A DNA stretch of 64,000 nt, taken from positions 262,762 through 326,761 of the IMG/VR virus record IMGVR_UViG_3300020429_000529, one strand, 5' to 3'. Each line of letters starts with the position of its first letter. Within the stretch, counting starts at the first letter, position 1. Both the position numbers and the translations under genes were made by a program. The stretch comes from a virus. Of the stretch, positions 17,017 to 59,792 are shown in pieces. The notes under the pieces were generated by a model. The model had not been told where the DNA came from. It saw only the letters and a list, made by a program, of their open reading frames with translations, and ran no database searches.

Positions 17017-18129
17017 TCAGTGGCCGAAGTATTTCATGCTGATTTCCTTGATCTCGTCCTGGGAGGCAAGGATAGCAAGATTCGCCTGTTCAACGAGAGG
17101 GCTTCCTTGACGGAAAGCGATGCCGTAGTTCTGCGGGGCGAATGTCGTATCCGCCATGACGACGACATCTTGACCTTCTCCGTTCGCGAAAAACGCCAGG
17201 TTCGGGACATCGCCAACAACAGCCTCGACTCGGCCCATGATAAGAGCAGCGATACACTGGTCGTAGTTGTCGTACTCCCTGACGATGCCATTGTAGAACT
17301 CAACCTCATCGACGCTGGTCGTTCCGCTGACGACAGCGATCTTCTTGCCCTTGAGATCGGAGGGACCATCGATCCGAGCTTCAAACTGCTGAACAACATT
17401 GAACGAGGTAATCGAAGCAGTCAGCGAACTGACGAGGATTGCAACGCAGAAGAAGCAGAGGACAGCAACGATTCGAGCGGCAACGCGCTTGGGGTAAACA
17501 TCGCCGTAGCCGATTGTCGAACCTGTTGTAAAGGCGAGCCAGACAGAGTTTGCGCTGCCCTTCATGACTTCCATAAAGGTCAGTCCGTCGTCGTCATTAG
17601 CATCTTGCTTGCGCTGATCGTCTGTAATGTAGAGAAGAAAACCAAAGACGCAGAGAGCCGCCAAGAACAATGCGCAGATGACGAGAAGGTTGACGATCAG
17701 GGGGATGCGGACTTCGATCCATGCTTGAATCGATGAAACAAAATCCTGGTTCGATTCTTCGGCGATCATAATGCCGAGACCCGTATTCATGTACGGTTGA
17801 GAGAAGTCGTAGATCTGCTCTCGTTCGAGATTGATCGTAATCCCGTTCATGATGCCGTCGATCTGATTGTCGCCCTGAAGCGCCGTGAACAGGTCGGCAA
17901 AGCGATCAAAATGAACAACCTCGACTTGCCAGTTGGCTGTGTCGCCGATCGTTGACAGAACTTCTGCATCGAAACCAGACATTGAGCCGTTTTCGCCTTC
18001 GATGAAGAAGGGTTCTTCGGCGACGATACCGATTCGAACAGTTCTCGGTTCAGAGACCTGAATGGGATCGCTCTGCGCCGATGCGACTGTTGCAAAGAGT
18101 GCGATGACTGCAAGAACGAGAGTCTTCAT
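17017..18129 (-). CDS. GluR0-like ligand-gated potassium channel (SBP lobe 1 - M1-P-M2 with TIGYGD filter - SBP lobe 2)
   Basis: Signal peptide MKTLVLAVIALFATVASA; family-3 SBP-like halves interrupted by two TM helices and pore helix with TTGSTIGYGDVYP; AGGAGA 7 nt upstream of ATG 18129. Confidence 0.65.
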   Translation of the reverse strand: MKTLVLAVIALFATVASAQSDPIQVSEPRTVRIGIVAEEPFFIEGENGSMSGFDAEVLSTIGDTANWQVEVVHFDRFADLFTALQGDNQIDGIMNGITINLEREQIYDFSQPYMNTGLGIMIAEESNQDFVSSIQAWIEVRIPLIVNLLVICALFLAALCVFGFLLYITDDQRKQDANDDDGLTFMEVMKGSANSVWLAFTTGSTIGYGDVYPKRVAARIVAVLCFFCVAILVSSLTASITSFNVVQQFEARIDGPSDLKGKKIAVVSGTTSVDEVEFYNGIVREYDNYDQCIAALIMGRVEAVVGDVPNLAFFANGEGQDVVVMADTTFAPQNYGIAFRQGSPLVEQANLAILASQDEIKEISMKYFGH

Positions 18130-18144
18130 CTCGGGTCTCCTGAG

Positions 18145-18180
18145 TTTGAAAAAGCCCCTCGTCCTGCGGAACAGGACGAG
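18145..18180 (-). terminator. rho-independent terminator downstream of the PspA-like gene
   Basis: CTCGTCCTG-cggaa-CAGGACGAG hairpin followed on the minus strand by GGGGCTTTTTC. Confidence 0.7.
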
Positions 18181-18200
18181 AGGCAAAGTGAGGGGGTGAT

Positions 18201-18899
18201 TCAGAAGTCTACGGACGACCCGCTGCCGCCGTACTTGTCTTCGAGGCTCTCGGCGTTGCCAACGCCAGCCATTTCCTCGAAGCTCTCGGCCTCGGCTTCG
18301 GACTGCTCGACGCTGCGCTCCAGGTCGTCGAGAGCCGAAAGGCCCTTGCCCTCGCTGAGGCCGTTCTGCGCCTTGGCGAACTTCGTGCGGATTGCCGCCG
18401 ACCGCTGGCGAGCGGCAAGGCTGACGACATTCTGCTCGGCGTTGCTGACCTTCTGGCGAGCCTGTTGCAGACGGGTCTGCATCTGCTCGAACAGCGCGCC
18501 GTCTCGCTTGATGTCCGCTTCGAGGCGAGAGACCGTCTTCTGCGCCGTTTCGAGCGCATCGAGGGCCTGCTGACCATCCTTGCGAGCCGCGGCGAGTTCA
18601 TCGGCCTTGCCTTCGAGAGCTTCGCCGGTGTTGCCGTCCTTGAGAGTGCCCGCATGGGCCTTGATCTTGTCGTAGATGCCCTGGTACTTGGCGACATCGG
18701 CCTTGGCAGCATCGAGCGCCCTGGTGTTCTGCTTCTGCGCGGCGCGAAGGGAAGCGATCTCGCTTGTGAACTTGGCGATCTCTTTCTTGGAGTCTTCGAT
18801 CGCCATCTTGCCCTTCGTTACATCATCGACATCGATCGCCTTGGCAACATCGTCAGATGCTTTGCGGCCTCGGCGGAAAATTGCGTCCATCAGTCCCAT
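18201..18899 (-). CDS. PspA/IM30/Vipp1 family protein (paralog 1)
   Basis: MGLMDAIFRRG... N-terminus and extended coiled-coil composition typical of PspA. Confidence 0.6.
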   Translation of the reverse strand: MGLMDAIFRRGRKASDDVAKAIDVDDVTKGKMAIEDSKKEIAKFTSEIASLRAAQKQNTRALDAAKADVAKYQGIYDKIKAHAGTLKDGNTGEALEGKADELAAARKDGQQALDALETAQKTVSRLEADIKRDGALFEQMQTRLQQARQKVSNAEQNVVSLAARQRSAAIRTKFAKAQNGLSEGKGLSALDDLERSVEQSEAEAESFEEMAGVGNAESLEDKYGGSGSSVDF

Positions 18900-18972
18900 T
18901 GTATTCTCCTGGGAAGTTGAGTTCTTCGTGTTCGGGTTTGTTTCGAGTTCAGACGTTCAGCGGCGGAGACGT

Positions 18973-19467
18973 TCAGCCGTTGCTGATGATCGCCTGCATG
19001 GTCAGGTTCGTCAGGTTGATTGCCGACTGCAGCTTGAGGAGCGAATGCTCCAACTCCTCGCGGGAGAAGTCGCCGAGCGGAACCGAATCGATGACCGTGA
19101 TGGGAGACTCGTCGAGATCGCTGATCTGATCCGTCGCTGCGGGTTCATCGATGTTCGTTGCGAAGGGCTTGATCTCGCTGTTGATGCTGACCAGACGCAT
19201 GAAGAGCGCCAGTGCCGTGTCGTTGTCGGGGATGTCAGCGAGCTTGCCGATCTGCGATTCGATGACGAGTTCGCTGTCATCGTCGGAGATGTCGAGGATT
19301 GCGACGAAGTTCTCGTCGCCAACGGGAAGAACGATCGAAACGCTCTTCTCCGCTTCGTCAGTCTCGATGATCCCGTACCCGAGATCCTGAACCGCCTCCG
19401 CCAGTCCGGCGATGTCGGCGATTTTGGTTGATGCCTCAGTTGCAGGCGTTGCCGTGGCCGTCGTCAT
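18973..19467 (-). CDS. acidic hypothetical protein
   Basis: 164-aa D/E-rich ORF co-oriented downstream of PspA. Confidence 0.4.
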   Translation of the reverse strand: MTTATATPATEASTKIADIAGLAEAVQDLGYGIIETDEAEKSVSIVLPVGDENFVAILDISDDDSELVIESQIGKLADIPDNDTALALFMRLVSINSEIKPFATNIDEPAATDQISDLDESPITVIDSVPLGDFSREELEHSLLKLQSAINLTNLTMQAIISNG

Positions 19468-19538
19468 GATTGACTCCTTCGTCGTTTTTCGCGCTGTCCG
19501 CTTCAGCGCTGATGTTCAGCGGATTGGGGTTCTTCTGG

Positions 19539-20243
19539 TCAGCGTTTGATGACCATCATTTCATGCGAGCCGATACTTGTTCCGAAGAACAGTTGAATCA
19601 ACCCGCCGTCGTCGTTGTCGGGATTGCCCATCTCAAGGATGAGCGCCTCGGGGCTATGCGCTCCCTCGGCTTCTGTGTCGTATTGAACGACAGTCGTCAA
19701 GAGCCGATCGCCCTGCGGAGGGTTGCGGCTTGCCCATGCTTGCAGGGGCGAAAAGCTCTTTCTGATGAACTGACACTCGACCGCAGGACCATCTTCAGGA
19801 ACCTGGTCATAGAAGAACTCATTAGCGTATTCGAGACTTCCGATTTCAAAGTCATCGGTGTCTTCGGGTTCTTCGAAGATGTATTCCTGCTCTGCGTCAA
19901 GAATGTCTTGACGGTTGCCGCTATCAAAGCCGCCAGCTTCGTAGAAGATGGTGAAATCAGGCTCGGCATCGGGAACGATGGTAACGAGCAGGTAAACCTC
20001 GGTTCCGTCATTATCGAGCTTGAAGAACAGCCATTCGCAAAGGCCGTCCATCTGTCTGATTTCGTAGACAGAGCGAACAACGCACTCTTGCCCTCGTAGC
20101 CCAACGCCCTGACCGAGAGACGCCATGAGCGCTTCGGTGTCGTTGATGGTGATGAAGCTTTCTGGTCGAACTTCTCGCCAGAAATCAGCTTTGGATTGAT
20201 CGAGTATCTCTGACATGGTTTCTCCGAATCGTAGGTCGTTCAC
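19539..20243 (-). CDS. hypothetical protein
   Basis: 234-aa ORF, same strand block. Confidence 0.4.
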   Translation of the reverse strand: MNDLRFGETMSEILDQSKADFWREVRPESFITINDTEALMASLGQGVGLRGQECVVRSVYEIRQMDGLCEWLFFKLDNDGTEVYLLVTIVPDAEPDFTIFYEAGGFDSGNRQDILDAEQEYIFEEPEDTDDFEIGSLEYANEFFYDQVPEDGPAVECQFIRKSFSPLQAWASRNPPQGDRLLTTVVQYDTEAEGAHSPEALILEMGNPDNDDGGLIQLFFGTSIGSHEMMVIKR

Positions 20244-20252
20244 CCGTTAGGG

Positions 20253-21041
20253 TCAACTCCCTTTGACGACAGCGATGACGACAACAATGATGACAGCGAT
20301 GACGACAACGCTGATGATGACGCCGAGGATGCCGAAGCCGCCGCCCGAGGCGTGATAGACCTGCGGCTGACCATAGGCGTAGCCGTACTGTCGCATCTGC
20401 GTGTTCATGAACATCGCATCAGTCATCATGTCGTACAGAATGAATGTCCCCAGAGCGTCCATGTACCCGTAGCCGCCGTGGGATTGATTGTAGGTGATGT
20501 TGTAGGTTTTCCCTCCGACGCTTGTCGATTGAGGGATATAGTCTGGTCGGGTCGAGGGTTGAGATGAGAAGCTCGTGGGATACTTCTGTTTGATCTCAGC
20601 GCCCTTCTGTTGCTTGAACGCAGCCGTCGCATCGGACCTGCTGTTGAAATGCGTGCCTTGCTTCTTGGCTCGATCGTGGAGAGCCTTCTCCGCCGCCGTC
20701 TTCTGCCTGGCTTCGGCCTTCGACATGCGAGGCTTTGTTGAACCCTTCTTGCTGCCCCAGCCGCTCTTGCTGCTGGTCGCCTTGTCGTTCTTCTTGTCGT
20801 TTTTGTTCCAGTTGTTGTTCTTGTTGGACTTCTGAGTCGTCTTCTTCGGCTGAGAAGCCTTCGGCTTGCTGTACGATCGGCTGCTGCTTCTGCTGCCGCC
20901 TCGCTGACCGTAGGCATCAGCAGGAACCGCAGCGCACACCGTGAAGGCGAGCAAAGCGCAAGCCAGAAGCTTGCCAGGTTTCGAAATGTCCGGCAGCTTC
21001 GGGAGTCCGAGGGCTGCTCTCTTTTTGATCCAAGTCAACAT
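20253..21041 (-). CDS. basic low-complexity protein with C-terminal TM anchor
   Basis: N-terminal signal/TM, K/S/N-rich linker, C-terminal VIISVVVIAVIIVVVIAVV helix. Confidence 0.4.
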   Translation of the reverse strand: MLTWIKKRAALGLPKLPDISKPGKLLACALLAFTVCAAVPADAYGQRGGSRSSSRSYSKPKASQPKKTTQKSNKNNNWNKNDKKNDKATSSKSGWGSKKGSTKPRMSKAEARQKTAAEKALHDRAKKQGTHFNSRSDATAAFKQQKGAEIKQKYPTSFSSQPSTRPDYIPQSTSVGGKTYNITYNQSHGGYGYMDALGTFILYDMMTDAMFMNTQMRQYGYAYGQPQVYHASGGGFGILGVIISVVVIAVIIVVVIAVVKGS

Positions 21042-21190
21042 CGTCGTCTCCTTATGAGGAATCTGAGCCGATCGATTTTCAACCGACTCCTACAGTATGA
21101 CAGCTTTCCTCTTCACCTGCAAAGGCGAAGCGGTCAGTGGCTCGCAGATACAACTATAAGGGAAGCGTTTCGGGAGATTCTGGTTGCAGA

Positions 21191-23884: not shown

Positions 23885-24727
23885 TTACGCTCTCGCTCGG
23901 TACTTCCTGTCCCATGCCTTGAGCTTGTCAAGGTCAAAGTTGGCGTTGTTGTTTCGCAGCTTCCCTTTGCCCCAGAACATCTCGATCATCCGATCCTTCG
24001 GTAACAGCTTCGTCGTCTTGTCGTCAGTGGTCGGAGACCATCCGAGACGAGCAACGCAGTTGAGTATAGCGTCGGGATGGTAGGATTTCATCAACTCGTC
24101 AAGAGATAGTCCATCGTCTCGCTTTGACAGTTTTCTGCCCTCGTGCATGATAAGACCGACATGGTAGAAGTCTGGCAGATCAGCGCCGAGCGCAGCAAAC
24201 AGCATCGCCTGGAATGACGTATTCGTCGTATGGTCCTTGCCTCGGATGACGCAATCGATTCCAAGCTCTATGTCGTCGATGACGGTTGCGAAGTTGTAAG
24301 TCGGCGTCCCGTCTTGTTTTCGTAGGATCTTGTTGCCAGCAATGCTCTTGTCGGTATCAGAGATACAGATCTGACCAGCGATGCCGTCTGTCCAGTGATC
24401 GAGATCGACGCCTCGGAGATCGCTCAGAACAACTCCGTAACCATTGTCGCTTGCCCATCCATCTGCGATGAGCCGATCGATGTAGCTGTTGTAGATGTCG
24501 ATACGATCGCTTTGATGAACGAGATCATCGTAGTCGAGACCAAAGTGCCCGAGCATGCTGACGATCTCTTTTGTATGGATCGCTTTTGATCGAGATTTAT
24601 CGGTGTCATCGATCCGTACAACAAAAGAGCCGCCCGTTGAACGAGCGGCTAACCAGTTTTGGTATGCTGTTCTAAGCGAGCCGAGATGCGGCGATCCCGT
24701 TGGCGATGGTGCGAATCTCGTTTTCAT
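23885..24727 (-). CDS. truncated class-I glutamyl-tRNA synthetase paralog (glutamyl-Q tRNA(Asp) synthetase-like, catalytic domain only)
   Basis: HIGH-type RFAPSPTGSPHLGS; KLSKR (KMSKS-type, as AKLSKQ in GluQRS/YadB); 280 aa with no anticodon-binding domain. Confidence 0.7.
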   Translation of the reverse strand: MKTRFAPSPTGSPHLGSLRTAYQNWLAARSTGGSFVVRIDDTDKSRSKAIHTKEIVSMLGHFGLDYDDLVHQSDRIDIYNSYIDRLIADGWASDNGYGVVLSDLRGVDLDHWTDGIAGQICISDTDKSIAGNKILRKQDGTPTYNFATVIDDIELGIDCVIRGKDHTTNTSFQAMLFAALGADLPDFYHVGLIMHEGRKLSKRDDGLSLDELMKSYHPDAILNCVARLGWSPTTDDKTTKLLPKDRMIEMFWGKGKLRNNNANFDLDKLKAWDRKYRARA

Positions 24728-24743: not shown

Positions 24744-24818
24744 TGACGCTGAAGGGAATCGAACCCTCGGACTTCTCCTTGAGAGGGAGAGATTTCTACC
24801 AGCAGAAACTACAGCGCC
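24744..24818 (-). tRNA. tRNA-Glu(CTC)
   Basis: Acceptor GGCGCTG/CAGCGTC; anticodon arm TCTCC-CTCTCAA-GGAGA; T-arm GAGGGTTCGATTCCCTT; 75 nt; 17 nt upstream of the GluRS-like start. Confidence 0.6.
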
Positions 24819-24823
24819 TCGAA

Positions 24824-24895
24824 TGACCCCTACGGGACTCGAACCCGTATTACAGCCTTGAAAGGGCCGCGTCCTAACCATTAGACGAAGGGGCC
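24824..24895 (-). tRNA. tRNA-Glu(TTC)
   Basis: GGCCCCT...; D GTCT-AATGGTTA-GGAC; anticodon arm CGGCC-CTTTCAA-GGCTG; T-arm ACGGGTTCGAGTCCCGT; 72 nt. Confidence 0.6.
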
Positions 24896-24905
24896 AGATT
24901 GTAAA

Positions 24906-24980
24906 TGACGCTGACGGGACTCGAACCCGCGAACTTCGGGATGAAAACCCGAGATTTCTGCCCACAGAAACTACAGCGCC
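24906..24980 (-). tRNA. tRNA-Glu(TTC), U32/U38 loop variant
   Basis: Same acceptor as 24744..24818; anticodon arm TCGGG-TTTTCAT-CCCGA; T-arm GCGGGTTCGAGTCCCGT; 75 nt. Confidence 0.55.
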
Positions 24981-24987
24981 ATGTAAA

Positions 24988-25062
24988 GTGACCCCACCGG
25001 GATTCGAACCCGGATTCCGACCTTGAGAGGGTCGTGTCCTAAACCTGCTTAGACGACAGGGC
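24988..25062 (-). tRNA. tRNA-Glu(CTC)
   Basis: GGCCCTG...; anticodon arm CGACC-CTCTCAA-GGTCG; T-arm CCGGGTTCGAATCCCGG; three G-U pairs in acceptor; 75 nt. Confidence 0.5.
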
Positions 25063-25075
25063 CAAAATTTGAAAG

Positions 25076-25150
25076 CACTCCCAAGGGGATTCGAACCCCT
25101 ATCGCTTGGATGAGAACCAAGTATCCTGAACCAGATTAGACGATGGGAGC
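25076..25150 (-). tRNA. tRNA-Glu(CTC), U32/U38 loop variant
   Basis: GCTCCCA...; anticodon arm CTTGG-TTCTCAT-CCAAG; T-arm AGGGGTTCGAATCCCCT; 75 nt. Confidence 0.5.
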
Positions 25151-25210: not shown

Positions 25211-25399
25211 TCAGTGAACCTGACGTTCCTGTTCTTCGAAGTGTTCTCGAAATGCGGTCATAGCTCGATCCATAAGGGGTTCTTCGGCGAGTATAGCAGT
25301 AATCCTCTTCACTTCCACGCTATTCCCCAAGATTTTTTGCGTTAGGGAGATTTTTGCTATGGCTTGACCCCTTGCAGGTGATAGCCTATTATGCTCCAA
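25211..25399 (-). CDS. small hypothetical protein (62 aa)
   Basis: ORF in the divergent intergenic region; weak. Confidence 0.2.
   Translation of the reverse strand: MEHNRLSPARGQAIAKISLTQKILGNSVEVKRITAILAEEPLMDRAMTAFREHFEEQERQVH
25364..25392 (+). promoter_or_regulatory. sigma-70-like promoter (TTGACC-17-TATTAT)
   Basis: ttgacc ccttgcaggtgatagcc tattat about 30 nt upstream of the plus ORF. Confidence 0.55.
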
Positions 25400-47356: not shown

Positions 47357-47384
47357 TCGTTGGGCATCGAGCAATAGGAGACTC

Positions 47385-48311: not shown

Positions 48312-48312
48312 T

Positions 48313-50669: not shown

Positions 50670-51495
50670 AGCATTTGGACGACTGTGGCGAGCGATTATT
50701 CTTCGTATCTCTGGTAACGCAGAGAACAAGGCTGATCGCATGATGGAAAACGCAAGCGCCATCCGTCAGGAATATCGAGAGATCAGCACCGAACTGCAGG
50801 GCGAACTCACCACCTTCCGAGATTCTGTTGGGCGCATGCTCGCTCAGAAAAAGTCGTTCGAGAAGAAGTCTGACCAGCATGCGACTGAAGCTGAGCGTTT
50901 CGGCAGAATCATGCGAGGCGCTCAGGCGAAGGCCAAGGCGTATGCCGACGAGAAGGGGCTTACGAAGGAACAGGCGCAGTCTGATCCCCAGTTCGTTACG
51001 CTCATGTCGGCGTATCAGGACGCCAAGACCAGTTTCGACCAGGAAACTGCGGCTGCCACAAACTACGCCAACGACGCTGCTGACATGCAGAAGAATCTCG
51101 ATTCGTACATGATCCAACTGCAGCAGAAGCAGCGCATGGTCGAGCAGGTCGCCCGAGAAGGTTCGACGGCGGAGGCTCGGGCGCAAGCGGCGCAGGAGAA
51201 GCAGCGTCTCGCCGAACTGCAGGCGGGAATGTCTTCGCAGAGCAGCACGACAGATCGCCTCAACAAGATCCGAGGCATCGTCGATCAGGTCGAGAGCCGA
51301 GCGGAAGTTACCGCCGAACTGGCGGGCACCAACACGACGGCGCTCGATGCGGAACTCGAACACTACGGCGAGCATGGCGCTGCCGCAGATCAGTTCATGG
51401 GGGACATCTTCGGCACTGACGGAGCCGACGATACCTCAAGGGCTGAGCATATCGAGATCGGGGGCGGAAGCGGCGACGGTAAGCCGAACGCCTGA
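50656..51495 (+). CDS. PspA/IM30/Vipp1 family protein (paralog 2)
   Basis: GAAGGAGAACTCC-ATG; MGLIRAFGRLWRAII N-terminus and coiled-coil. Confidence 0.65.
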   Translation: MGLIRAFGRLWRAIILRISGNAENKADRMMENASAIRQEYREISTELQGELTTFRDSVGRMLAQKKSFEKKSDQHATEAERFGRIMRGAQAKAKAYADEKGLTKEQAQSDPQFVTLMSAYQDAKTSFDQETAAATNYANDAADMQKNLDSYMIQLQQKQRMVEQVAREGSTAEARAQAAQEKQRLAELQAGMSSQSSTTDRLNKIRGIVDQVESRAEVTAELAGTNTTALDAELEHYGEHGAAADQFMGDIFGTDGADDTSRAEHIEIGGGSGDGKPNA

Positions 51496-51556
51496 GCGGA
51501 GCGGCTTGTTGCCGCCGGTAAGAACACACTTCTCAATGACGAAGGAGTCAAAGAAC

Positions 51557-52741
51557 ATGAGACTGTCAAGCATCATCATCGGGACCATTGCAGCCGCCGT
51601 TATCGGCTGCGGCGGTCAGGTCGCTGCCAGCACGAACGAGAGCGCCGATTACCCCGTCGTTACTCACCTGTGGAGCGAGTACCCGTCCTGGTCTGTCTTC
51701 GGCGTTGCGGGCAACCGCGCCGTCGCTCCTGACGAGGGCATCACCTTTGTCGGCAACGGCAAGAGCATCACCATCGAGGCTGGCGAGAGGTATGTCCTCG
51801 TCAATCCGAAGACCGGCGGGTCGATGGGCGTCCTCGAAGATCTCTATGAGATCGACTACAACTTCAGTCAGAAGGATTACGACCCGTGCATGCAGTTGTA
51901 CGGCAACGGCAATGCCGATTCCGTCTGCCTGACCAACATCGACATCCTTCCTTCTTCTCTCAGTCGCCCGTCTGTCATGATCCTCGCTACTTCGACGAGC
52001 GACAGCGCTGATGCGTTCATCGTCGAAGAGAGTCTGGTCGGCGAAAACCTTCTCGCAACTCTCGACAACATCCGCAAGGCGGGCATCGAGGTTCGAGGTC
52101 TCGACAAGTCGGTTTCCGACTTCACTCTGTTCCGCGCCATCGAGGAGGCGGGCGGCAATTGGGAAGACTACGCTGATCTCTGGTCCTACGCTGATCCCGC
52201 CGTCGCTGCTACCGGCATGCAGCAGCGCGATGACAAGTTCCAGGCGATCGTCGTTTGGAATCCCTTCAAGATGGAGACGCTTGCTCGTCGAGGCGACAGC
52301 GTTCGGGTCGTCGTCGATTCTGGCATCATCCCCAATGAGATCATCGACAGCGTATTCATGTCTCAGGCGCTTCTCGATCAGCCCCACGGCGAGCGAGCGG
52401 CGCAGGGCATCATCCATTCGTTCTACGCTGTCTGCGACCGCATGAACGCCTCGACGACAAGGGATGACACTCTCATCGCTATCGGCGAGCGGTTCAGCAA
52501 TCTCAGCCTTGGCGCTATGCGTCAGGTCGTTCGCGAGACCGTCTTCTACGATACCCCGGCGAAGAGCTTCGGCCTCATGACCGATCCGAACTTCCCCGCC
52601 ACCATGGATCGAGTTACGCAGTTCTCGCTCGACCGCGATGCCACGGACCAGCGAGCTACGGTCAGCTTCGGCAATGAGCGAGGCTCCAACCTCCGCATCG
52701 ACGCTTCGTTCATCGAGGCGTACCAGCAGAGCCAGCCCTGA
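51557..52741 (+). CDS. ABC transporter substrate-binding lipoprotein (NitT/TauT-like)
   Basis: GAAGGAG SD; lipobox AVIGC; SBP-like. Confidence 0.5.
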   Translation: MRLSSIIIGTIAAAVIGCGGQVAASTNESADYPVVTHLWSEYPSWSVFGVAGNRAVAPDEGITFVGNGKSITIEAGERYVLVNPKTGGSMGVLEDLYEIDYNFSQKDYDPCMQLYGNGNADSVCLTNIDILPSSLSRPSVMILATSTSDSADAFIVEESLVGENLLATLDNIRKAGIEVRGLDKSVSDFTLFRAIEEAGGNWEDYADLWSYADPAVAATGMQQRDDKFQAIVVWNPFKMETLARRGDSVRVVVDSGIIPNEIIDSVFMSQALLDQPHGERAAQGIIHSFYAVCDRMNASTTRDDTLIAIGERFSNLSLGAMRQVVRETVFYDTPAKSFGLMTDPNFPATMDRVTQFSLDRDATDQRATVSFGNERGSNLRIDASFIEAYQQSQP

Positions 52742-52810
52742 TCTGCGGCCACTCGCGTCGGCTTCGGCTGATGCACTCGCTGCGCCTCGCCCCCAGCGGG
52801 GCGCAGTTTT

Positions 52811-53632
52811 ATGATACGAGGCAGTATTTCAAAACGACGAAGCCTCTTCTTTAGCCTCCTCGCTGTGGCGATCATTGCGATCGGGTATGTTTCCCTATCG
52901 TGGATCATGAACAGTCGAGCCGAGGCAAGGGGAGAGTCCCTAAGCACGATGCCCAACGTCCAACAGTTGTGGGGAGGCTTCAAGGAAGTCTTTACGCCGC
53001 ACTACAGGTCGGGCGAGATTTGGGCCAAGCAAGACGCCATCGCTACGGGCACTCGCTTTGGCCTCGGTCTGTTGGCAACGATTGTTGGATCGATTTCGAT
53101 CGGTCTGATCTCTGGTTGCTTCCGAAGCATCGATGCTTTCTTTACTCCGATCCTTGTATGGATCGCCAAGATTCCGCCTACGGCTGCGCTACCAGTATTT
53201 TTCGCGCTGCTCGGAGCCGACAACACCATGTTCATCGGCCTCGCCATCTTCGGAACCGTTACTGGTTTGTATATGACGAGCCGCAACTCGGTCCTCAACA
53301 TCCCCGAACAGTTGATCCACAAGTCATACATCCTTGGCATCGATCATACAACGGCTGTTACGACGATTGCCGCACGAATGAGCCTCCCGCATATCATCGA
53401 AGGCATCCGTCTCTCCATCGGTCCTCTCATGGTCTATCTGATCGCTGCTGAAGCGCTGAGCGCTGATGTCGGCTTCGGATACACCATTCGAGTCCAGGCT
53501 CGCATCAATGACATGAAGGTCGTTTATCCTTACCTGTTGATGCTCTCGATGTTCGGGCTCTTTGTTGACTGGATCTTTGTTTGGCTCAAGCGGCTTCTCT
53601 GCTCATGGGCTATTGAGAAGCAGGAGAAATAA
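52811..53632 (+). CDS. ABC transporter permease
   Basis: Six TM segments, binding-protein-dependent permease-like core. Confidence 0.6.
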   Translation: MIRGSISKRRSLFFSLLAVAIIAIGYVSLSWIMNSRAEARGESLSTMPNVQQLWGGFKEVFTPHYRSGEIWAKQDAIATGTRFGLGLLATIVGSISIGLISGCFRSIDAFFTPILVWIAKIPPTAALPVFFALLGADNTMFIGLAIFGTVTGLYMTSRNSVLNIPEQLIHKSYILGIDHTTAVTTIAARMSLPHIIEGIRLSIGPLMVYLIAAEALSADVGFGYTIRVQARINDMKVVYPYLLMLSMFGLFVDWIFVWLKRLLCSWAIEKQEK

Positions 53633-53634
53633 TC

Positions 53635-54615
53635 ATGCCAAACAGAAAGCCCATTCTAAGCATCAAGAACCTCAGCCAATGGTTCGGCGATGTTCATGTT
53701 CTTGACAACCTGAACATTGACATCTATCCCGGAGAAATTGTTGCCCTTGTTGGACCAAGCGGTTGCGGCAAGTCTACGGTCCTCAACTGTATCACGGGGA
53801 CGTTACGGCCTAAGCGCGGCGAGGTCGTCCTTAGAGAGGCTGACGGCTCTCTCGTAAGCGTCAAGGGGCCGAGCCGAAGCCTTGGGCGAGTCTATCAGAA
53901 CTACTCGCTGTACCCCTTCTGGTCCGCTCGCAAGAATGTCGCCGCTGGACCGATGTTCAGAGAATCCAATCCCATCACCCGATGGACAGGGCATCCTTCC
54001 CTCAAAACCGGATGGAGAGGCGGTATTTGGTGGTGGTGGAAGGCCCGCAAGCGGCACCTTCTTCAAGCCGACCAGGAACTTGCTCGTCTTGGCCTTGGGG
54101 GACATGAGCGAAAGCTACCCAAACAACTCTCAGGCGGGCAGCAACAGCGAGTCGCAATTGCTCAAGCGCTTATCAACAAGCCAAGGGTTCTCCTGATGGA
54201 TGAGCCTTTCGGCGCTCTTGATGAAGCGACCCGAGAAAGGGAGCAGAAGTTTCTTCTGTCTCTCTACCTTGAGAACAAACGGGCTATTGCCGCTGGTCAA
54301 GAGCCTCCGAATACTGTCATCATCGTGACGCATGAGTTGAGCGAGGCAATCTATGTCGGCTCTCGCATCATTGGACTCAGCCAATGGAGAGATTCGAACG
54401 GAGACGGAGAGAGAACCGAGCATCCGAACGGTGCTGCCGTTCTACTCGACGAACCGTGTCCCATCTTTGATCCTCATGACACAAAGGACAAAGATGCTTT
54501 TATTGACCTGAGTCATCGCATTCTCGATGAGGTTTACGAGCCCAAGGAAGCGAACATGGTCAAGGATCTGCAAGAGACTCGTAAGCAGGTCAGCAGGATG
54601 GATGCCGAGTCATGA
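53635..54615 (+). CDS. ABC transporter ATP-binding protein
   Basis: Walker A GPSGCGKST; signature LSGGQQQR; Walker B VLLMDEP. Confidence 0.75.
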   Translation: MPNRKPILSIKNLSQWFGDVHVLDNLNIDIYPGEIVALVGPSGCGKSTVLNCITGTLRPKRGEVVLREADGSLVSVKGPSRSLGRVYQNYSLYPFWSARKNVAAGPMFRESNPITRWTGHPSLKTGWRGGIWWWWKARKRHLLQADQELARLGLGGHERKLPKQLSGGQQQRVAIAQALINKPRVLLMDEPFGALDEATREREQKFLLSLYLENKRAIAAGQEPPNTVIIVTHELSEAIYVGSRIIGLSQWRDSNGDGERTEHPNGAAVLLDEPCPIFDPHDTKDKDAFIDLSHRILDEVYEPKEANMVKDLQETRKQVSRMDAES

Positions 54616-54977
54616 GACCCGATGAAGTCGAAGTCGGTCAAGAGGTATGGATCAAGAACCCATGGGTTGATTCCATGGGCAACAACCCCATGCTTCCAAT
54701 CCTGAAAGGAAAGATCGAACAGATCAATGAAGCCAACGCCAGAAGAGCGTGTTGGGTATCAGGCGTCAACAGGTGGCTCTATCCCGAAGCCCTGCATCGA
54801 ACAAGGGAAGAAGCGGATAGCGTGCCTGCGGCAACTGTACCTGCGTATTCTTTCGTAGCAACAGTCAACGCCAATGTTGATAATGAAAAGTTGACTGATG
54901 CGGAGTTCAGAGAGTTCGTTCGCAATTCGCTACCGCTGGTCAGAGAGCTATTCGTGGAGCCTCTGTCGTCGGTATAA
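54612..54977 (+). CDS. hypothetical protein
   Basis: 121-aa ORF overlapping the upstream stop. Confidence 0.4.
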   Translation: MRPDEVEVGQEVWIKNPWVDSMGNNPMLPILKGKIEQINEANARRACWVSGVNRWLYPEALHRTREEADSVPAATVPAYSFVATVNANVDNEKLTDAEFREFVRNSLPLVRELFVEPLSSV

Positions 54978-54998
54978 GCATTCGGAGTTGTAGCCATC

Positions 54999-56219
54999 AT
55001 GCAGTTTGCTTTCGATGGAATCGATATCGCCAAGCCGTCTAATCTTCGTCGCATGAACCTCAACCGAGACGAAATTGATCGTCTGCGCATGTTTTGTTCA
55101 TCGGAGGAACTCCGATTCATCCCGCATCCTGCTTTTGAGTCGGGCACCGAGTTCCCCGACCCTATGCCAGAGTACCATCCGGACATTACCTGGTTTGTGA
55201 ATCTTGTTTCTTCGGATGCAACTGATGTCCACAGAGTTCGCCCTCCTGTGGATATTATTCGTTTGACTGCTGCTGAAGAGGACATGCTCTTTAGCCGGTA
55301 CAACTTCCATCGACGCCGACTGTATCTTGTTCAGGAAGAATGGATCAAGAACGGTCGCAGAAGCATGTTGATTCGAGACATTCGAGCGATTCTCCATGAC
55401 ATGCTTATGGTTGAACAGATCGAGGAGCGAATCTCGCATTTCAACCTGGGACTCTGCGTTGCGATGGCGAAGAAGATTCGACGAGAGGGCGACTACGAAA
55501 CGATGTCTGAGTTGTGGAGCGAATGCAACATCGCTCTTCTTCGGGCGATCAGAGGATTCGATTCCAGTCGAGGTTTCAAGTTCAGCACCTACGCTTGTCG
55601 AGCCATGCTCAAGGCCATGAGCAGAGAAAGGCAGCGCAACGCCAAGCATCGCAGCAGGTTTATCCCCGCTTCGTGCTTTGGCAGAGAAGGCTCTGATGCC
55701 GAAGAGCGTCATGCCTTCATGAATGCCATGGGCGAGTCTCCTGATGAGTTAGGCGATATCGTTGACTCGAATCATGATTCCTTCATTCACGATCAGGTTC
55801 AATTCCTTCTAACCAATCGCCTTGATTTCGGTCCTGAGCATTCTCTGACCGATCAAGAGAGAACTGCTATCCTTCACAGGTTTGATCCTAATGGAGGTAG
55901 CGGTATGCAGGGGCTCGTGACGCTTGAGAACATCGGCGAGATCATGGGCGTTACGAAGGAACGAGTCAGGCAAGTTATCAACAGCGGACTTTCCAAGATC
56001 CGCGACATCATCATGCACTTTGACCCGACTTCTGATTTTGAACTCGAAATTCCGCCCAAGCAGGAAGAAATCTCTGACGAAGATGATGTCAGAAGCGTCT
56101 TTACTGTTGTGGCGACAAACCAGGAGCCTTACGATGACGGATCTCTCGCTGCCACAGTTACACAAGACGATGATTTCGGAGTTTCAATGCTCGGGATGCT
56201 CTCGGGGGTTGAATCCTGA
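54999..56219 (+). CDS. sigma-70 family RNA polymerase sigma factor
   Basis: Region 2 RGFKFSTYACRAMLKAM; region 4 HTH LVTLENIGEIMGVTKERVRQVINSGLSKIR. Confidence 0.7.
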   Translation: MQFAFDGIDIAKPSNLRRMNLNRDEIDRLRMFCSSEELRFIPHPAFESGTEFPDPMPEYHPDITWFVNLVSSDATDVHRVRPPVDIIRLTAAEEDMLFSRYNFHRRRLYLVQEEWIKNGRRSMLIRDIRAILHDMLMVEQIEERISHFNLGLCVAMAKKIRREGDYETMSELWSECNIALLRAIRGFDSSRGFKFSTYACRAMLKAMSRERQRNAKHRSRFIPASCFGREGSDAEERHAFMNAMGESPDELGDIVDSNHDSFIHDQVQFLLTNRLDFGPEHSLTDQERTAILHRFDPNGGSGMQGLVTLENIGEIMGVTKERVRQVINSGLSKIRDIIMHFDPTSDFELEIPPKQEEISDEDDVRSVFTVVATNQEPYDDGSLAATVTQDDDFGVSMLGMLSGVES

Positions 56220-56726
56220 CGAGTGCGACAGCTTCAAGTACCATAAGCATGATGAAGGCAATGCTGGTTTCGGTTGCCATAATCATTCGCCTGGTACTAT
56301 GCTCGCTGGCGTGATTGTTACGGGAGGGAAGCAGGCGATTCAGAATGTCGTTCTTGGCTTGCCCAAGGGCTTCGATCGTTGCGGCCCTGTCGATTTCAAC
56401 AAGCAAGGCGTTTTCGTTCGCTTGTTCGACAGCACCGATCAGCTTGAGGGTCATTGGAACGAACTGAATATCCCCGTTTGGGCGATGGAGCGGGACGGCT
56501 TTTTGTTCGTTCGGACCTACATGCCTCGCATCAATACCTGCTATGTCGATGTCATTCACAACGGCAGCAGGGAAGCTCTTGTTCCGAGCGCTGTTGATGT
56601 CGGCGTTTTTGCCGATCAGATCGATTGAAAATTCGTCATGGCTTGCAGGTGCCGTATTTACTCGGTACACTAAAGATGAGCCCAAGCAGGCACTTCACCC
56701 GAAACGCCCGAAACGGAGGCAATCCA

Positions 56727-57299
56727 ATGACAGCATGTACGAGTCGATACACGCCCGACCAGGCAATCAATGCCGTCTGGCATCACTACATCCAACTGGG
56801 CGGTTTGCCTGCTCTGAGCATGGATGGTCGCAAGCTGTACCACATCGATGGCAACGGCTGCGCCATCACCGTTCTCGCAACGCCCGCCATGCGAGAGATG
56901 CTCGCCCTCACAGACCACCATGTCTCGCCCGCCTGCGAGCTTTCGAACCAGAACATCAACATCGCCGAGATCATCGATGCGCCGGATTGGTGTCGAGGCA
57001 GAGTTCTTGAGTTCCTGCAGTCCATCCAGAGCGCCCACGATGCCGCTGGCGACGAGTACCGCTTGAATCTTCTGGGCGGCGAGCCGAGGGGTCTCTGCCA
57101 CGACATCTTCTGCACTCGTCTCGCCCGCGAACTGGCGAATGTCTGTCGAGAGTTCGATCTCACCAAGCTGGCGCAGGATCTCAAGCTGCGCGATCGACCT
57201 GTTCGCCGAGACATCCCTGCGAAGCAGATCATCGACGACGCTCCGAAGTTCGATGTCCAGGAGTCCGAGGCTCCGTCCGAACTCGTCGGCGCTCTCTGA
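56727..57299 (+). CDS. hypothetical protein
   Basis: aacGGAGGc SD then ATG 56727. Confidence 0.4.
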   Translation: MTACTSRYTPDQAINAVWHHYIQLGGLPALSMDGRKLYHIDGNGCAITVLATPAMREMLALTDHHVSPACELSNQNINIAEIIDAPDWCRGRVLEFLQSIQSAHDAAGDEYRLNLLGGEPRGLCHDIFCTRLARELANVCREFDLTKLAQDLKLRDRPVRRDIPAKQIIDDAPKFDVQESEAPSELVGAL

Positions 57300-57366
57300 A
57301 CAGCAAGTCGCTTCATCTCTTTTCTCCCCACGCAAGGCTTCGCCAATCGGCGGAGCCTTGTTTCTT

Positions 57367-57395
57367 TTGCAGGTGTCGTTCGTAAGCAGTAGAAT
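57367..57395 (+). promoter_or_regulatory. sigma-70-like promoter (TTGCAG-17-TAGAAT) with TTGCAGGTG motif
   Basis: ttgcag gtgtcgttcgtaagcag tagaat upstream of GAGGG-GTG 57430. Confidence 0.5.
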
Positions 57396-57429
57396 GAAGG
57401 CGGCTCTGCCAAGATAGCGAGGGTTACAG

Positions 57430-58110
57430 GTGTACGACCTATTCTTTGACGGATACGCTTCAGTTTTCTCTGTACCAGCAATGCTGGCAACGTTTTTCTT
57501 GGGCATCAAGTTCGTCTTGATGATGACGGGCGGCTCGGAAGACGGTAGCGAAATTGATGCGGATGGCGTTGATATCGATGTTGACGCCGACGTTGATGTA
57601 GATGCTGGCGATATCGATGCGGATGCGGCTGAGATCGATCATGACTCGGCTGAGTTTACCTCCAAGAGCCACAGCCACAACAAACAGGCTCGTCCATCGG
57701 GTTTCAAGCTGCTGACGACCATGACGCTTGCCGCTGCCATTATGGGAGGCGGCTTTGCTGGTCTCGCAACTTTCCGCTCAACAGGAGATAACCTGTTTGC
57801 GGCAATCATCGCTGCTGGCATCTTCGGGTTCATCTTCATGTTTACCTTCGCATGGCTCATGCGATTCATCTTTACCTTGAGCGAGCATGGAACCATCACG
57901 GTTGGCGATGCTTTGTATGAGACTGCTGTTGTCTACATTTCTGTACCTGGCAAAAGAGGCGGCAGAGGCGAAGTCAAGGTTCTCGTAAACGGACGTATTC
58001 GGTATTTCCGCGCCGAGACTGACGAAGAAACAATCCCTTCCGGTGAGGAAGTATACATCATCGATGACCAGCCTGCGGATGGACTGGTTATTGTTGCCCG
58101 CAAGGACTGA
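57430..58110 (+). CDS. NfeD/YqiJ-like membrane protein with OB-fold C-terminus and Asp-rich linker
   Basis: TM-acidic repeat-TM-OB fold; immediately upstream of a flotillin gene as in yqiJK. Confidence 0.6.
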   Translation: MYDLFFDGYASVFSVPAMLATFFLGIKFVLMMTGGSEDGSEIDADGVDIDVDADVDVDAGDIDADAAEIDHDSAEFTSKSHSHNKQARPSGFKLLTTMTLAAAIMGGGFAGLATFRSTGDNLFAAIIAAGIFGFIFMFTFAWLMRFIFTLSEHGTITVGDALYETAVVYISVPGKRGGRGEVKVLVNGRIRYFRAETDEETIPSGEEVYIIDDQPADGLVIVARKD

Positions 58111-58124
58111 GCAAGGAGCAAGCT

Positions 58125-59792
58125 GTGGACAAAATAATGTCTGGACCCATTCTGTGGCTGATAGTTGGAGGAGCCTTCATCGGCCTCTTCATCTTTGTGA
58201 TGATGGTCATCAAATCGCTCTACAAGCGATGCCCCTCCAACAAGGTGCTGGTCATCTATGGTAAAGTCGGCGGCGACTCTGCCAAGTGCATGCACGGCGG
58301 CGGTTCGATGATTATCCCGCTGATTCAAGACTATGCCTACCTGAGTCTTGAACCGCTCGTCATCGACATCCCTCTTGAAGGCGCGCTCTCGCTCAACAAC
58401 ATCCGAGTCAATGTTCCGTCAACCTTCACGGTCGGTATCTCAACCGAACCGACCCTCATGGCGAACGCTGCCGAGCGTCTGCTTGGTCTGAACCAGAAGC
58501 AGATTCAGGATCAGGCGCAGGACATCATTCTCGGTCAGCTTCGTCTCGTGATCGCTACCTTGTCGATTGAAGAGATCAACAAGGACCGCGAGAAGTTCAT
58601 GAATCTCGTCAACGAGAACGTGACGCAAGAGATCAACAAGGTCGGTCTCGAACTTATCAACGTCAACGTTCGAGACATCACCGACGAAAGCGGGTACATT
58701 ACCGCTATCGGTCAGCGCGCTGCCGCCGAAGCTGTCAACAAGGCCCGAGTCGAAGTCGCTGAGCAGGAGCGAGACGGCGAGATGGGCGTTGCCAAGGCGA
58801 GCCGAGAGAGGGCCGTCAAGGTCGCTGAGGAAGATTCGCTCGCTGAACAGGGCCGTAAGACCGCTGAGCAGTCGCAGCGTATTCGGCTTGCTCAGCTTGA
58901 GGCTGAGGCTGTTTCTGGCGAAGCCGAATCTCAGCGGACCCGAGAGATTGCCGTTGCTCAGAGAGAGGCTGAGACGGCTTCTGCGATGGCCGAGGCTGCT
59001 CAGTCTCGTCGTATCAAGATCGCTACCGCTGAGGCGACTGCAAGACAGGGCGAAAACGAAAGCTCTGCTCTGGTCGCCAAGTCTGACGCCGAGCTTGCCA
59101 AGACGCGAGCCGAATCGTCGCAGACTGCTGAAACGGCGCAAGCCTCGGCTCGTCGAGCGATTCTCGAAGCCGAGGCTGAGGCCGAGACTGCTCGACTCCA
59201 CAAGGAACTGGTCGTTCCCGAAGAGGCCGAGAAGAGGCGAATCGAGATTGAGGCGGAAGCCGAAGCGGAACGAGAGCGTCGTCGAGCGAAGGGCGAGGCC
59301 GATGCGATCTTCGCTCGCTACGATGCCGAAGCTCGCGGTACGCAGGCGGTGCTTGAGGCGAAGGCCGAGGGCTATCGCAAGATGATGGAGGCTTGCGCTG
59401 CGAATCCTGACATCGCTCCGACGCTGCTGCTTATCGAGCAGTTGCCGACGCTTGTTGATGCTCAGGTCCAGGCGATCTCGAACCTCAAGATCGACAAGAT
59501 CACGGTTTGGGAAGGCGGCGGCGGAGCCAACGGTCAGACCTCGACCGCCAACTTCCTCCGCAACATTGTTCAGGTTCTTCCTCCGCTAACCGATCTCGCC
59601 CGTCAGGCGGGGATCAAGCTGCCTGACGCGCTCGGTCAGATCGAGGAGATGGCGAATATGAGCATCAAGAACCCGCAGGTTGTTGATGTTGATGCCATCG
59701 ACGAAGATGAAGAAACCGGAGAAGCCGTTTCGCCGGGTTCGACGGGCAACGCGAAACTTGCTGCTACTGTCATCGGCGGCAAGGACGACTAA
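58125..59792 (+). CDS. SPFH/Band-7 flotillin-like protein (YqiK-like)
   Basis: N-terminal TM, SPFH core, long EA-rich coiled coil. Confidence 0.7.
   Translation: MDKIMSGPILWLIVGGAFIGLFIFVMMVIKSLYKRCPSNKVLVIYGKVGGDSAKCMHGGGSMIIPLIQDYAYLSLEPLVIDIPLEGALSLNNIRVNVPSTFTVGISTEPTLMANAAERLLGLNQKQIQDQAQDIILGQLRLVIATLSIEEINKDREKFMNLVNENVTQEINKVGLELINVNVRDITDESGYITAIGQRAAAEAVNKARVEVAEQERDGEMGVAKASRERAVKVAEEDSLAEQGRKTAEQSQRIRLAQLEAEAVSGEAESQRTREIAVAQREAETASAMAEAAQSRRIKIATAEATARQGENESSALVAKSDAELAKTRAESSQTAETAQASARRAILEAEAEAETARLHKELVVPEEAEKRRIEIEAEAEAERERRRAKGEADAIFARYDAEARGTQAVLEAKAEGYRKMMEACAANPDIAPTLLLIEQLPTLVDAQVQAISNLKIDKITVWEGGGGANGQTSTANFLRNIVQVLPPLTDLARQAGIKLPDALGQIEEMANMSIKNPQVVDVDAIDEDEETGEAVSPGSTGNAKLAATVIGGKDD

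Follow-up and report, generated by a model that had tools for sequence, protein, structure and literature searches.

PspA Neighborhoods and the Genome under Study

PspA, a phage shock protein (PSP), takes its name from its induction by a phage protein. Among the gene neighborhoods of this family that have been described in bacteria, two classes of operon are relevant here, that is, the CesT/Tir-PspA dyad (yjfI-yjfJ), a variant of which also encodes a K+ channel, a DUF1190 lipoprotein, and a DUF2491 protein, and operons in which a transmembrane (TM) protein and a PBPb-OmpA protein are encoded together with PspA, a permease, and an ABC ATPase (Ravi et al. 2024, PMC11237479). Pairs of flotillin and YqiJ have been proposed to work with a PspA that is encoded elsewhere (Ravi et al. 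2024, PMC11237479). A pspA-like gene has also been reported in the Jug huge gut phages, where it is transcribed and lies beside terD stress genes (Sci Adv 2026, PMC12880540). Here we analyze a window of 64,000 nucleotides (positions 262,762 to 326,761 of the IMG/VR virus record IMGVR_UViG_3300020429_000529), and we find that the span 17017–59792 of this window (42.8 kb) encodes three PSP modules, each of a class of PspA neighborhood that is already known. In the lineage represented by this stretch, the phage is itself the carrier of the PSP network, of which it has three forms. We favor the hypothesis, at a probability of roughly 0.55, that a huge phage gathered the three modules under one class of promoter and would use them to preserve the integrity of the host membrane while it infects the cell.

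The span comprises three transcription units. Block 1 (17017–21122, minus strand) encodes a basic membrane protein, an acidic protein, a CesT/Tir-fold chaperone, and PspA1, followed by a terminator and a GluR0-type K+ channel. The core of block 2 (45358–54615, plus strand) encodes two fusions of a solute-binding protein (SBP) with OmpA, the first and third genes, on either side of a von Willebrand factor A (vWA) protein, then a helical protein with two TM segments, PspA2, an SBP, a permease, and an ATPase. The third unit (57367–59792, plus strand) encodes an NfeD-flotillin pair; it has a promoter and a terminator of its own and is an insertion specific to the lineage of the window. A sequence-only reading of this DNA had described a single membrane-stress toolkit in two blocks. 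All of the genes that it named are present where it placed them, and every gene from 45428 to 59792 lies on the plus strand, as it had said, but the toolkit is divided among three separate units, with ~24 kb of unrelated genes between them, including a tRNA-Glu array, a GluRS fragment, Dam, a GlnA-like gene, and others. What appears to be new is the presence of three PSP modules with two PspA subfamilies on one phage-like genome, the repeated occurrence of a complete eight-gene PspA operon in huge phages, and a CesT/Tir-PspA cassette tied to a GluR0-type channel, which is so far confined to this phage family. As in the Jug phages, a huge phage encodes a PspA-like protein, and the Jug gene belongs to a transcribed unit of stress type; however, the Jug gene is single and has TerD as its partner, whereas the window encodes two PspA subfamilies whose partners are CesT/Tir, channel, ABC/OmpA, and flotillin proteins.

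The best-supported identity of the element is a marine huge-phage genome of ~0.5 Mb, although the window alone does not prove it. The window is ~52% GC and densely coding, with 12 tRNA genes in two arrays, and it encodes a Ro60/TROVE protein, NAMPT, a glutamine-synthetase-like protein, a Dam methylase, a peptide deformylase (PDF), UvdE, and a sigma-70 family factor. A protein 99% identical to PspA2 is encoded on a 502,461-bp ENA contig (378x) whose name carries the suffix "_c", which we read as circular, and a protein 100% identical to PspA1 is encoded on a 498,590-bp NCBI contig, with further PspA1 members in Tara Oceans data. Another window protein was found on 16 contigs, and in 11 collection blocks the longest carrier measures 0.2–1 Mb (e.g., 498,610 bp). 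In at least 11 samples the assembled genome measures ~498.6 kb. Relatives of both blocks are found on IMG/VR viral contigs of 65–548 kb, and one of these contigs, the 488-kb L101, shows the order o253-PDF-operon-sigma-UvdE in synteny with the window. In one IMG/VR relative the PspA gene is divided between the two ends of the contig, as would be expected if that genome is circular, and the ~0.5-Mb genome studied here is probably circular as well. The sequence-only reading was thus right to place the genes on a mobile-looking genome and not on an ordinary chromosome.

Neither the 64-kb window nor the 10 kb upstream of it yielded a gene for a capsid, portal, terminase, or tail protein, and a PHROGs search with 30 proteins returned no virion genes; the label of phage therefore rests on the IMG/VR relatives and the gene content. 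The lack of a virion gene over ~74 kb would also fit a cellular genome that has been reduced, or a megaplasmid or other extrachromosomal element, whose PSP genes serve its own housekeeping, as would the many genes of bacterial type, the sigma-70-like promoters, and the operons. Such an origin seems quite improbable to us given that the relatives of both blocks on contigs of 65–548 kb are classed as viral in IMG/VR, that the genes present are of the kinds usual in huge phages (NAD salvage, Ro60, Dam, polynucleotide kinase and RNA ligase of T4 type, tRNA arrays, and matches to PHROGs), that most genes match nothing in any family library, and that we saw neither ribosomal genes nor genes of core metabolism. 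Among GenBank phages there is no DNA match to block 2 and no match to PspA1, and a 42-mer of the PspA1 gene has no exact match in IMG/VR. For the NCBI relative NPIG01000001, a literature look-up was empty and no link was found in a marine megaphage paper.

Two PspA Subfamilies and the Operons around Them

The product of PspA1 (18201–18899, minus strand) scores 27.3 bits against PF04012 when searched alone (the Pfam cutoff is 33.9) and matches Vipp1 in the PDB at E = 8e-4. A profile of its eight-member family aligns over the full length with Vipp1/PspA entries of the PDB (E = 3e-18; positions 1–214 vs. 1–212), and its homologs carry PF04012. Based on this profile, PspA1 is assigned to the PspA/IM30/Vipp1 family, the bacterial ESCRT-III proteins, and it contains the N-terminal MGLMDAIFRRGRK helix, a family feature predicted to bind membranes. 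Only eight homologs of PspA1 were found in an index of 5.8 billion proteins, and they lie on huge or short contigs. The window copy has an insertion of ~21 residues (residues ~83–103) at the predicted tip of the hairpin, which is absent from all seven aligned relatives.

PspA2 (50656–51495, plus strand) is a divergent PspA/IM30 protein of an operon-associated subfamily. As a single sequence it matches nothing in Pfam or the PDB; however, all 20 homologs examined at ~30% identity carry PF04012 (one such match being marked as weak), and the family profile matches Vipp1 at 7e-6 over helices 3–5. An AlphaFold2 model with a mean predicted local distance difference test score (pLDDT) of 65 places helices at residues 3–18, 33–100, 111–169, 172–193, and 198–213, which would correspond to the alpha0 helix, the long hairpin of alpha1 and alpha2-3, and the helices alpha4 and alpha5 expected for the PspA family, and the six best Foldseek matches of this model in the PDB are Vipp1/PspA entries with weak E values of 0.02–0.06. 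We therefore place PspA2 in PF04012 on the evidence of its homologs and family profile. The two proteins had been called paralogs; both do belong to the PspA family, but a recent duplication was rejected, since they share only ~25% identity over 134 residues (E = 0.024), hhalign gives a probability of 47%, and each groups with a different family. They represent different PspA subfamilies with different sets of known partners (Ravi et al. 2024).

The operon around PspA2, all of it on the plus strand, begins with a secreted SBP-OmpA fusion (45428–47356) that has an NMT1/SsuA-like SBP and an OmpA-like peptidoglycan-binding domain, and its orthologs occur at 31–45% identity in bacteria and on huge contigs. 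The vWA protein (47385–48311; VWA, 5e-11) has a signal peptide, a C-terminal TM segment, and DASGS at its metal ion-dependent adhesion site, in which DxSxS is intact. The second SBP-OmpA fusion (48313–49896; OmpA, 7.9e-10; NMT1_2, 1.4e-5) has an N-terminal anchor and 104 indexed homologs at 25–50% identity, many of which are named Verrucomicrobiales or Pirellulales. The fourth gene (49896–50669), immediately upstream of PspA2, encodes a cytoplasmic helical protein with two TM segments (TMCC) that has no detectable similarity to PspA, Snf7, Pfam, or PDB entries. Downstream of PspA2 lie the SBP of a NitT/TauT-type ABC importer (51557–52741), a lipoprotein with a lipobox-like VIGC that matches TIGR03427 at 1.6e-23, below the cutoff; a strong hairpin of 12 bp, 9 of them GC (52779–52807), which is probably an attenuating terminator; the permease (52811–53632; BPD_transp_1, 4e-12); and the ATPase (53635–54615; ABC_tran, 3e-33), in which Walker A, the signature, and Walker B are intact. 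Between its Q-loop region and its LSGGQ signature the ATPase also carries an insertion rich in Trp (GIWWWWKARKRH).

This operon is found on many bacterial chromosomes. A scan of GTDB, one genome per species, with the second SBP-OmpA fusion gave 275 stretches confirmed by tblastn, and the counts given here cover the best 80 of them. The full eight-gene order, with PspA2 between TMCC and the SBP as in the window, is present at 39 of these 80 loci, and at 7 more the order is kept up to PspA2, where the contig ends. PspA2 is thus the gene next after TMCC at 46 loci, and TMCC itself is present at 76. The ABC genes directly follow TMCC, with no PspA2, at 9 loci in Pirellulaceae and Planctomycetales records; only the first four genes are present at 20 loci, 17 of which belong to Poribacteria; and 5 loci could not be classified, as the contig ends too early or no anchor open reading frame (ORF) is found. 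The eight-gene order occurs in Verrucomicrobiota, Planctomycetota, Poribacteria, and others, and its carriers include Poribacteria chromosomes of 4.7–6.35 Mb, a 3.8-Mb contig of Planctomycetota, and a 1.6-Mb contig of an unclassified bacterium. The isolate Pirellulaceae SH449 has a seven-gene form on its 7.05-Mb chromosome (SBP-OmpA, vWA, SBP-OmpA, TMCC-like, SBP, permease, ATPase; no PspA2), and the neighbors of this operon read as housekeeping genes. Median identities between the bacterial proteins and those of the window are 25–46%, and the flanks of the bacterial loci gave no match to any other block 2 protein of the window.

The core of block 2 is a captured bacterial operon, that is, host housekeeping machinery taken up by a phage. 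The sequence-only reading had proposed envelope remodeling or protection "rather than host housekeeping", and this wording is too strong because both the block 2 operon, which sits on bacterial chromosomes and contigs of 1.6–6.35 Mb as an ordinary chromosomal operon (with flanks that read as housekeeping in SH449), and the NfeD-flotillin pair are ordinary in bacteria. Homologous blocks of this chromosomal kind are what the sequence-only reading had itself named as evidence against its proposal, and for block 2 they do occur. The capture points to a host in or near Planctomycetota, Verrucomicrobiota, or Poribacteria for this cosmopolitan marine phage of ~0.5 Mb. Since the complete eight-gene operon is also present on many bacterial chromosomes, we consider its genes to be real and probably used in infection.

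Copies of the operon with PspA2 are also found on at least seven other huge contigs (the operon is present in L015/L016 and L100–L105), at identities to the window copy of 22–47%. Five of the seven are IMG/VR contigs of 65–488 kb, one is a 153-kb contig from a metagenome that it shares with one carrier of block 1, and one is a 387–652-kb element that encodes a family A DNA polymerase; a sixth IMG/VR contig with the operon ends before PspA2. PspA2 is kept in all seven huge-contig copies that reach its position, and TMCC is detected by BLAST in six of the seven. The modules stay intact in relatives whose proteins are only 22–47% identical. It is very improbable, and the reading to which we give least credence, that the modules are recently acquired cargo of no function to the element. 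At ~56%, their GC content slightly exceeds the mean of the window (52%), as such cargo might show; however, their reading frames are intact, their gene order is kept at this degree of divergence, and they are headed by promoters of the element's type and not by host promoters.

The operon resembles the described PspA/Snf7-TM + ABC + PBPb-OmpA operon (OGG56892.1) in bringing together PspA, a TM protein, an ATPase, a permease, and SBP/OmpA fusions, an identity that we infer from the description of that operon. In contrast to the described operon, the window operon and the bacterial loci examined have no AAA+ ATPase, the vWA protein and the second SBP-OmpA fusion are constant members, the TM partner has no similarity to Snf7 or PspA, and the window copy lies on a phage-like genome. 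A relation of TMCC to TM-anchored Snf7/PspA proteins was considered and found no support in a PDB profile search, in hhalign against PspA1, or in Pfam (25 members). On a 4.0-Mb contig (ERZ26693581 ctg358783, 10001–12754 of locus L001), a PspA2-like gene that is detached from the operon adjoins a gene for a 579-aa AAA+ ATPase; its family includes Poribacteria records, and the pairing recalls one described by Ravi et al. On the Poribacteria chromosome OZ244587.1 (11608–16948 of locus L057), two flotillin-like genes lie inside the operon, between TMCC and PspA2.

A different reading of block 2, which we hold possible but doubtful, is that it serves chiefly for nutrient uptake (taurine, sulfonate, or a urea-like N/S compound), with PspA2 as a passenger and the other PSP genes unrelated to it. 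The SBP, permease, and ATPase are intact, an attenuator-like hairpin follows the SBP gene, the SBP resembles putative urea and sulfonate SBPs, the window also has glutamine-synthetase-like and NAD salvage genes, and nine of the bacterial operons are variants without PspA2. However, the huge-contig copies that reach this position retain PspA2 and, in six of seven, TMCC; among the three SBP-like proteins only one is of the ordinary kind found in transporters, the other two being fusions anchored to peptidoglycan; and two further PSP-network modules stand under the same type of promoter in this genome.

In block 1, all of it on the minus strand, the first gene (20253–21041) encodes a basic, secreted or membrane-anchored protein of net charge +27, with hydrophobic segments at both ends, that consists of an N-terminal signal/TM segment, an S/R/K-rich linker, a conserved GGYGY domain, and a C-terminal TM segment and has no Pfam match. 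The second (19539–20243) encodes a conserved acidic protein of 234 aa (net charge −33) with no match in Pfam or NCBIfam, and the third (18973–19467), immediately upstream of PspA1, an acidic protein of 164 aa (net charge −24). One acidic protein had previously been noted in this block; there are two. For the 164-aa protein, which has ~70 relatives at the 50% cluster level, an AlphaFold2 model based on an alignment of 58 relatives (pLDDT 93.5) shows the alpha-beta-beta-beta-alpha-beta-beta-alpha fold of class I type III secretion system chaperones. The best 25 Foldseek matches of the model in the PDB are of one fold, and 22 of them are named type III secretion chaperones, including ExsC, CesT, SchA, SicP, and SycE (E values of 3e-4 to 2e-2, TM-scores up to 0.75). 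Matches of the family to Pfam are weak (YbjN in 5 and CesT_Tir_1 in 2 of 58 members), and a fold search of BFVD with the model gave nothing significant.

PspA1 is followed by a terminator-like hairpin (18154–18184; 14 bp, 9 of them GC, with a T tail) and by the channel gene (17017–18129; the ORF extends to 18186), for which Met at 18129 is probably the start because of the strong terminator at 18184–18154. The predicted channel consists of a signal peptide, an SBP lobe, M1, a P-loop with TIGYGD (residues 223–228), M2, and a second SBP lobe, and it matches SBP_bac_3 (1.2e-20), Lig_chan (1e-11), Lig_chan-Glu_bd, and Ion_trans_2 above the Pfam cutoffs. With binding lobes split around a two-TM pore and a TxGYGD filter, it is by its sequence a K+ channel of the GluR0 type. 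These are the features that it has in common with GluR0 of Synechocystis, a prokaryotic glutamate-gated K+ channel. Unlike GluR0, the window channel adjoins PspA and is conserved across a phage family. The filter T(V/I)GYGD is kept in five of seven orthologs, and the other two (L003 10690–11850 and L004 11184–12290) have no recognizable GYGD.

The five-gene order is common to eight related loci (L003, L004, L005, and L008–L012) from seven huge contigs, that is, a 522-kb NCBI contig, a 161-kb ENA contig, and five IMG/VR contigs of 186–548 kb. The cassette of the 161-kb contig is also present on a 17.6-kb NCBI contig (L005). An ortholog of the channel comes after PspA1 in all of these relatives, and the cassette has so far been found on huge phage-like contigs only.

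Based on the chaperone fold and the PspA1 neighborhood, block 1 is a CesT/Tir-PspA dyad, lineage-specific to this huge-phage family. As in the described dyad operons, the gene just before that of the PspA-family protein encodes a CesT/Tir-fold protein, and the unit is completed by genes for a K+ channel, a second acidic protein, and a basic protein that is exported. Between the PspA1 profile and Escherichia coli YjfJ there is a weak alignment (E = 1.3e-4). The unit differs in that its channel is of the GluR0 type with an extracellular ligand, whereas that of the dyad senses an intracellular ligand, and in that it has no polyamine or ATP-grasp genes and no DUF350. Furthermore, YjfI gave no sequence match, and homology of the two additional proteins to YjfM and YjfK could not be demonstrated. 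Three candidate identities were rejected, that is, YjfI/DUF2170 for the 164-aa protein (hhalign probability below 1% against E. coli YjfI; DUF2170 in 0 of 58 members), YjfK (DUF2491) for the 234-aa protein (hhalign not significant), and YjfM for the basic protein (hhalign against E. coli YjfM not significant). Because the comparisons with YjfI, YjfK, and YjfM were not significant, we refer to block 1 as a variant of the dyad class and not as a member of the yjf family.

Flotillin Unit, Shared Promoters, and Proposed Role

The NfeD-flotillin unit opens with a YqiJ/NfeD-like membrane protein (57430–58110, plus strand) that has a TM segment, a D-rich acidic loop, further TM segments, and a beta-rich C-terminus, and it ends 14 bp upstream of the flotillin gene (58125–59792, plus strand). 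The flotillin has a TM segment, Band_7/SPFH, a coiled coil, and Flot, with Pfam matches above the cutoffs (Band_7 PF01145, 2e-28, 100 bits; Flot PF15975, 8e-10, 39 bits), and it is 25% identical to E. coli YqiK over the full length (E = 3e-21). Six records of GenBank phages match it, of which the annotated ones, csAssE-Sib and Vibrio KIT04, are both named "flotillin family protein". The smaller protein has no match in Pfam (NfeD PF01957, DUF1449), NCBIfam, or PHROG, and BLASTP against E. coli YqiJ is not significant (E = 6.5); its architecture and D-rich loop resemble those of an evident YqiJ homolog in L007, a 543-kb IMG/VR contig with its own YqiJ-flotillin pair. The arrangement is that of E. 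coli YqiJ-YqiK and Bacillus subtilis YuaF-FloT, in which a small multi-TM protein is encoded immediately upstream of a TM-Band_7-coiled-coil-Flot protein. In contrast to those pairs, the upstream protein of the window gave no significant match to YqiJ or to NfeD/DUF1449 of Pfam, and a phage-type promoter precedes the pair, whose insertion is specific to the lineage. Pairs of NfeD and flotillin are also ordinary in bacteria, as in the case of E. coli yqiJK.

A sigma-70 family factor with regions 2 and 4 (54999–56219, plus strand; phrog_351) lies between the operon and this unit. It had been counted as part of the block, in which it is indeed present, although outside the bacterial operon; in phage relatives it is linked to the operon. 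In L101 a 32%-identical sigma factor follows the operon and adjoins UvdE (61% identity) directly, and in L100 an unrelated sigma factor precedes the operon. The stretch o109-o190-NfeD-flotillin-o112 (56299–60176), that is, the NfeD-flotillin pair with three small ORFs, has no counterpart at L101 16669–18377. Because the sigma factor of L101 adjoins UvdE directly, this stretch is an insertion in the lineage of the window.

All three units are headed by a promoter of the class TTGCAGGTG-N14-TAnAnT. The motif TTGCAGGTG occurs at six sites in the window, against 0.43 expected, and all six are intergenic and co-oriented with the next gene (13826–13834, minus; 21114–21122, minus; 25372–25380, plus; 45358–45366, plus; 56643–56651, plus; 57367–57375, plus). 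The sequence-only reading had linked promoters of this motif to the regulon of the sigma factor; the motif precedes both PspA blocks and the NfeD-flotillin pair, which accounts for three of the six sites. At five of the six, TTGCAG is followed by a TAnAnT-like box after a spacer of 16–17 nt, and the box of the 25372 site is poor (TCCAAT). The promoter of block 1 (21094–21122, minus strand; TTGCAG(GTG), 17-nt spacer, CATACT) lies 73 bp upstream of the first gene, that of block 2 (45358–45386, plus strand) reads TTGCAG(GTG), 17-nt spacer, TATGAT, and the NfeD-flotillin unit is preceded by a terminator and promoter (57332–57395, plus strand) composed of a hairpin at 57332–57361 and TTGCAG(GTG)-17-TAGAAT from 57367. 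At three of the sites GCCACTGAC is found 11–12 nt upstream of the motif. At the corresponding place before the operon, L101 has TTGCGGGTG-17-TACTAT (L101 6982), and the AT-rich relatives L008 (7903) and L009 (7927) have TTGAAAGTG at the corresponding place before the block 1 cassette. In several relatives a degenerate motif occurs on the coding strand only. The sites support a common promoter class for the three modules, from which neither specificity for the modules nor recognition by any particular sigma factor follows. An Rfam search of the window returned tRNAs only, with no riboswitch or leader before the three modules.

We favor use of the modules by the phage because they are conserved across diverged huge phages and share promoters. 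PspA-type ESCRT-III polymers would attach by their N-terminal helix to inner membrane under stress and prevent protons from leaking. The CesT/Tir-like protein probably keeps PspA1 competent for assembly or delivers it, and TMCC probably docks PspA2 at the membrane, beside a peptidoglycan-anchored SBP-OmpA/vWA complex and the importer. The flotillin and its YqiJ-like partner, which may have been inserted more recently than the other modules, would organize or scaffold membrane domains. The K+ channel could couple an external ligand to the membrane potential, and channel and importer together would maintain ion balance and the supply of solutes. Proton-motive force and biosynthesis might in this way last through a long infection until very large virions are finished, and the phage would gain since the cell must stay energized while 0.5-Mb genomes and very large particles are built. 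If the modules are expressed in infection, huge phages manage the integrity and energization of the host membrane, and membrane management would form a class of auxiliary functions apart from the usual metabolic genes. The modules also provide a handle on the poorly understood CesT/Tir-PspA dyad, which is associated here with a ligand-gated K+ channel, and on the widespread, uncharacterized SBP-OmpA/vWA/PspA/ABC operon of Planctomycetota, Verrucomicrobiota, Poribacteria, and their allies.

Several points, in addition to the missing virion genes, weigh against this hypothesis. The evidence from PspA2 itself is modest (pLDDT 65, Foldseek E values of 0.02–0.06), and the NfeD identity of 57430–58110 is drawn from architecture and position and not from sequence. 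The three TTGCAGGTG sites that do not belong to the modules head a tRNA array, ORF 25422, and ORF 56727, and the motif could be that of the host sigma-70 or of a general temporal class instead of a membrane regulon. Module 2 could matter mainly as a transporter, and a role in membrane maintenance is suggested by what is known of these protein families.

Two further roles in infection have to be weighed against membrane maintenance. The modules could remodel the envelope so as to block superinfection or to counter abortive infection that depolarizes the membrane. Exported and envelope-anchored proteins are present, PspA seals proton leaks (PMC11237479), and the pspA-like gene of the Jug phages is transcribed beside terD (PMC12880540), all of which would suit phage conflict; we nevertheless think this unlikely as the operon is conserved on the chromosomes of free-living bacteria, among housekeeping neighbors. 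The PspA proteins, the flotillin, and the SBP-OmpA/vWA complex might also build or reshape membranes inside the host, such as a compartment, a vesicle, or an internal or external virion membrane. Elaborate endomembranes are known in Planctomycetota and Verrucomicrobiota, which are candidate hosts. Although we regard membrane building as very unlikely, it would, if true, represent virus-directed ESCRT-III remodeling in bacteria, parallel to the use of ESCRT by eukaryotic and archaeal viruses.

Other Genes of the Window

The first ORF of the window (29–1249, plus strand) is the C-terminal part of a 1358-aa protein that is complete at L099 5920–9996 and has no match in PHROGs or GenBank phages, and directly upstream of its gene lies a CCA-adding-enzyme-like gene (PolyA_pol + HD, 900 aa). 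The Ro60/TROVE protein (9214–10866, minus strand; phrog_850) has a vWA domain and adjoins a tRNA array, and Rfam detects no Y RNA. A MoxR-like ATPase (phrog_1297) and a DUF2201 metallopeptidase/vWA-like protein (phrog_1314) are encoded as a pair at 32420–35673 (minus strand), and a third vWA-type protein is encoded at 1254–3092.

Two tRNA-like matches were made by Rfam and not by ARAGORN (11800–11927 and 24906–24980, both on the minus strand), the first of which has a length of 128 nt and may include an intron. The GluRS encoded at 23885–24727 (minus strand) has 280 aa and consists of the catalytic domain only, a size and layout as in GluQ-RS/YadB. Its gene adjoins four or five tRNA-Glu genes (24744–25150, minus strand), and the other array includes two genes for tRNA-Asp(GTC) (11490–11653, minus strand), the type of tRNA that is the substrate of GluQ-RS.

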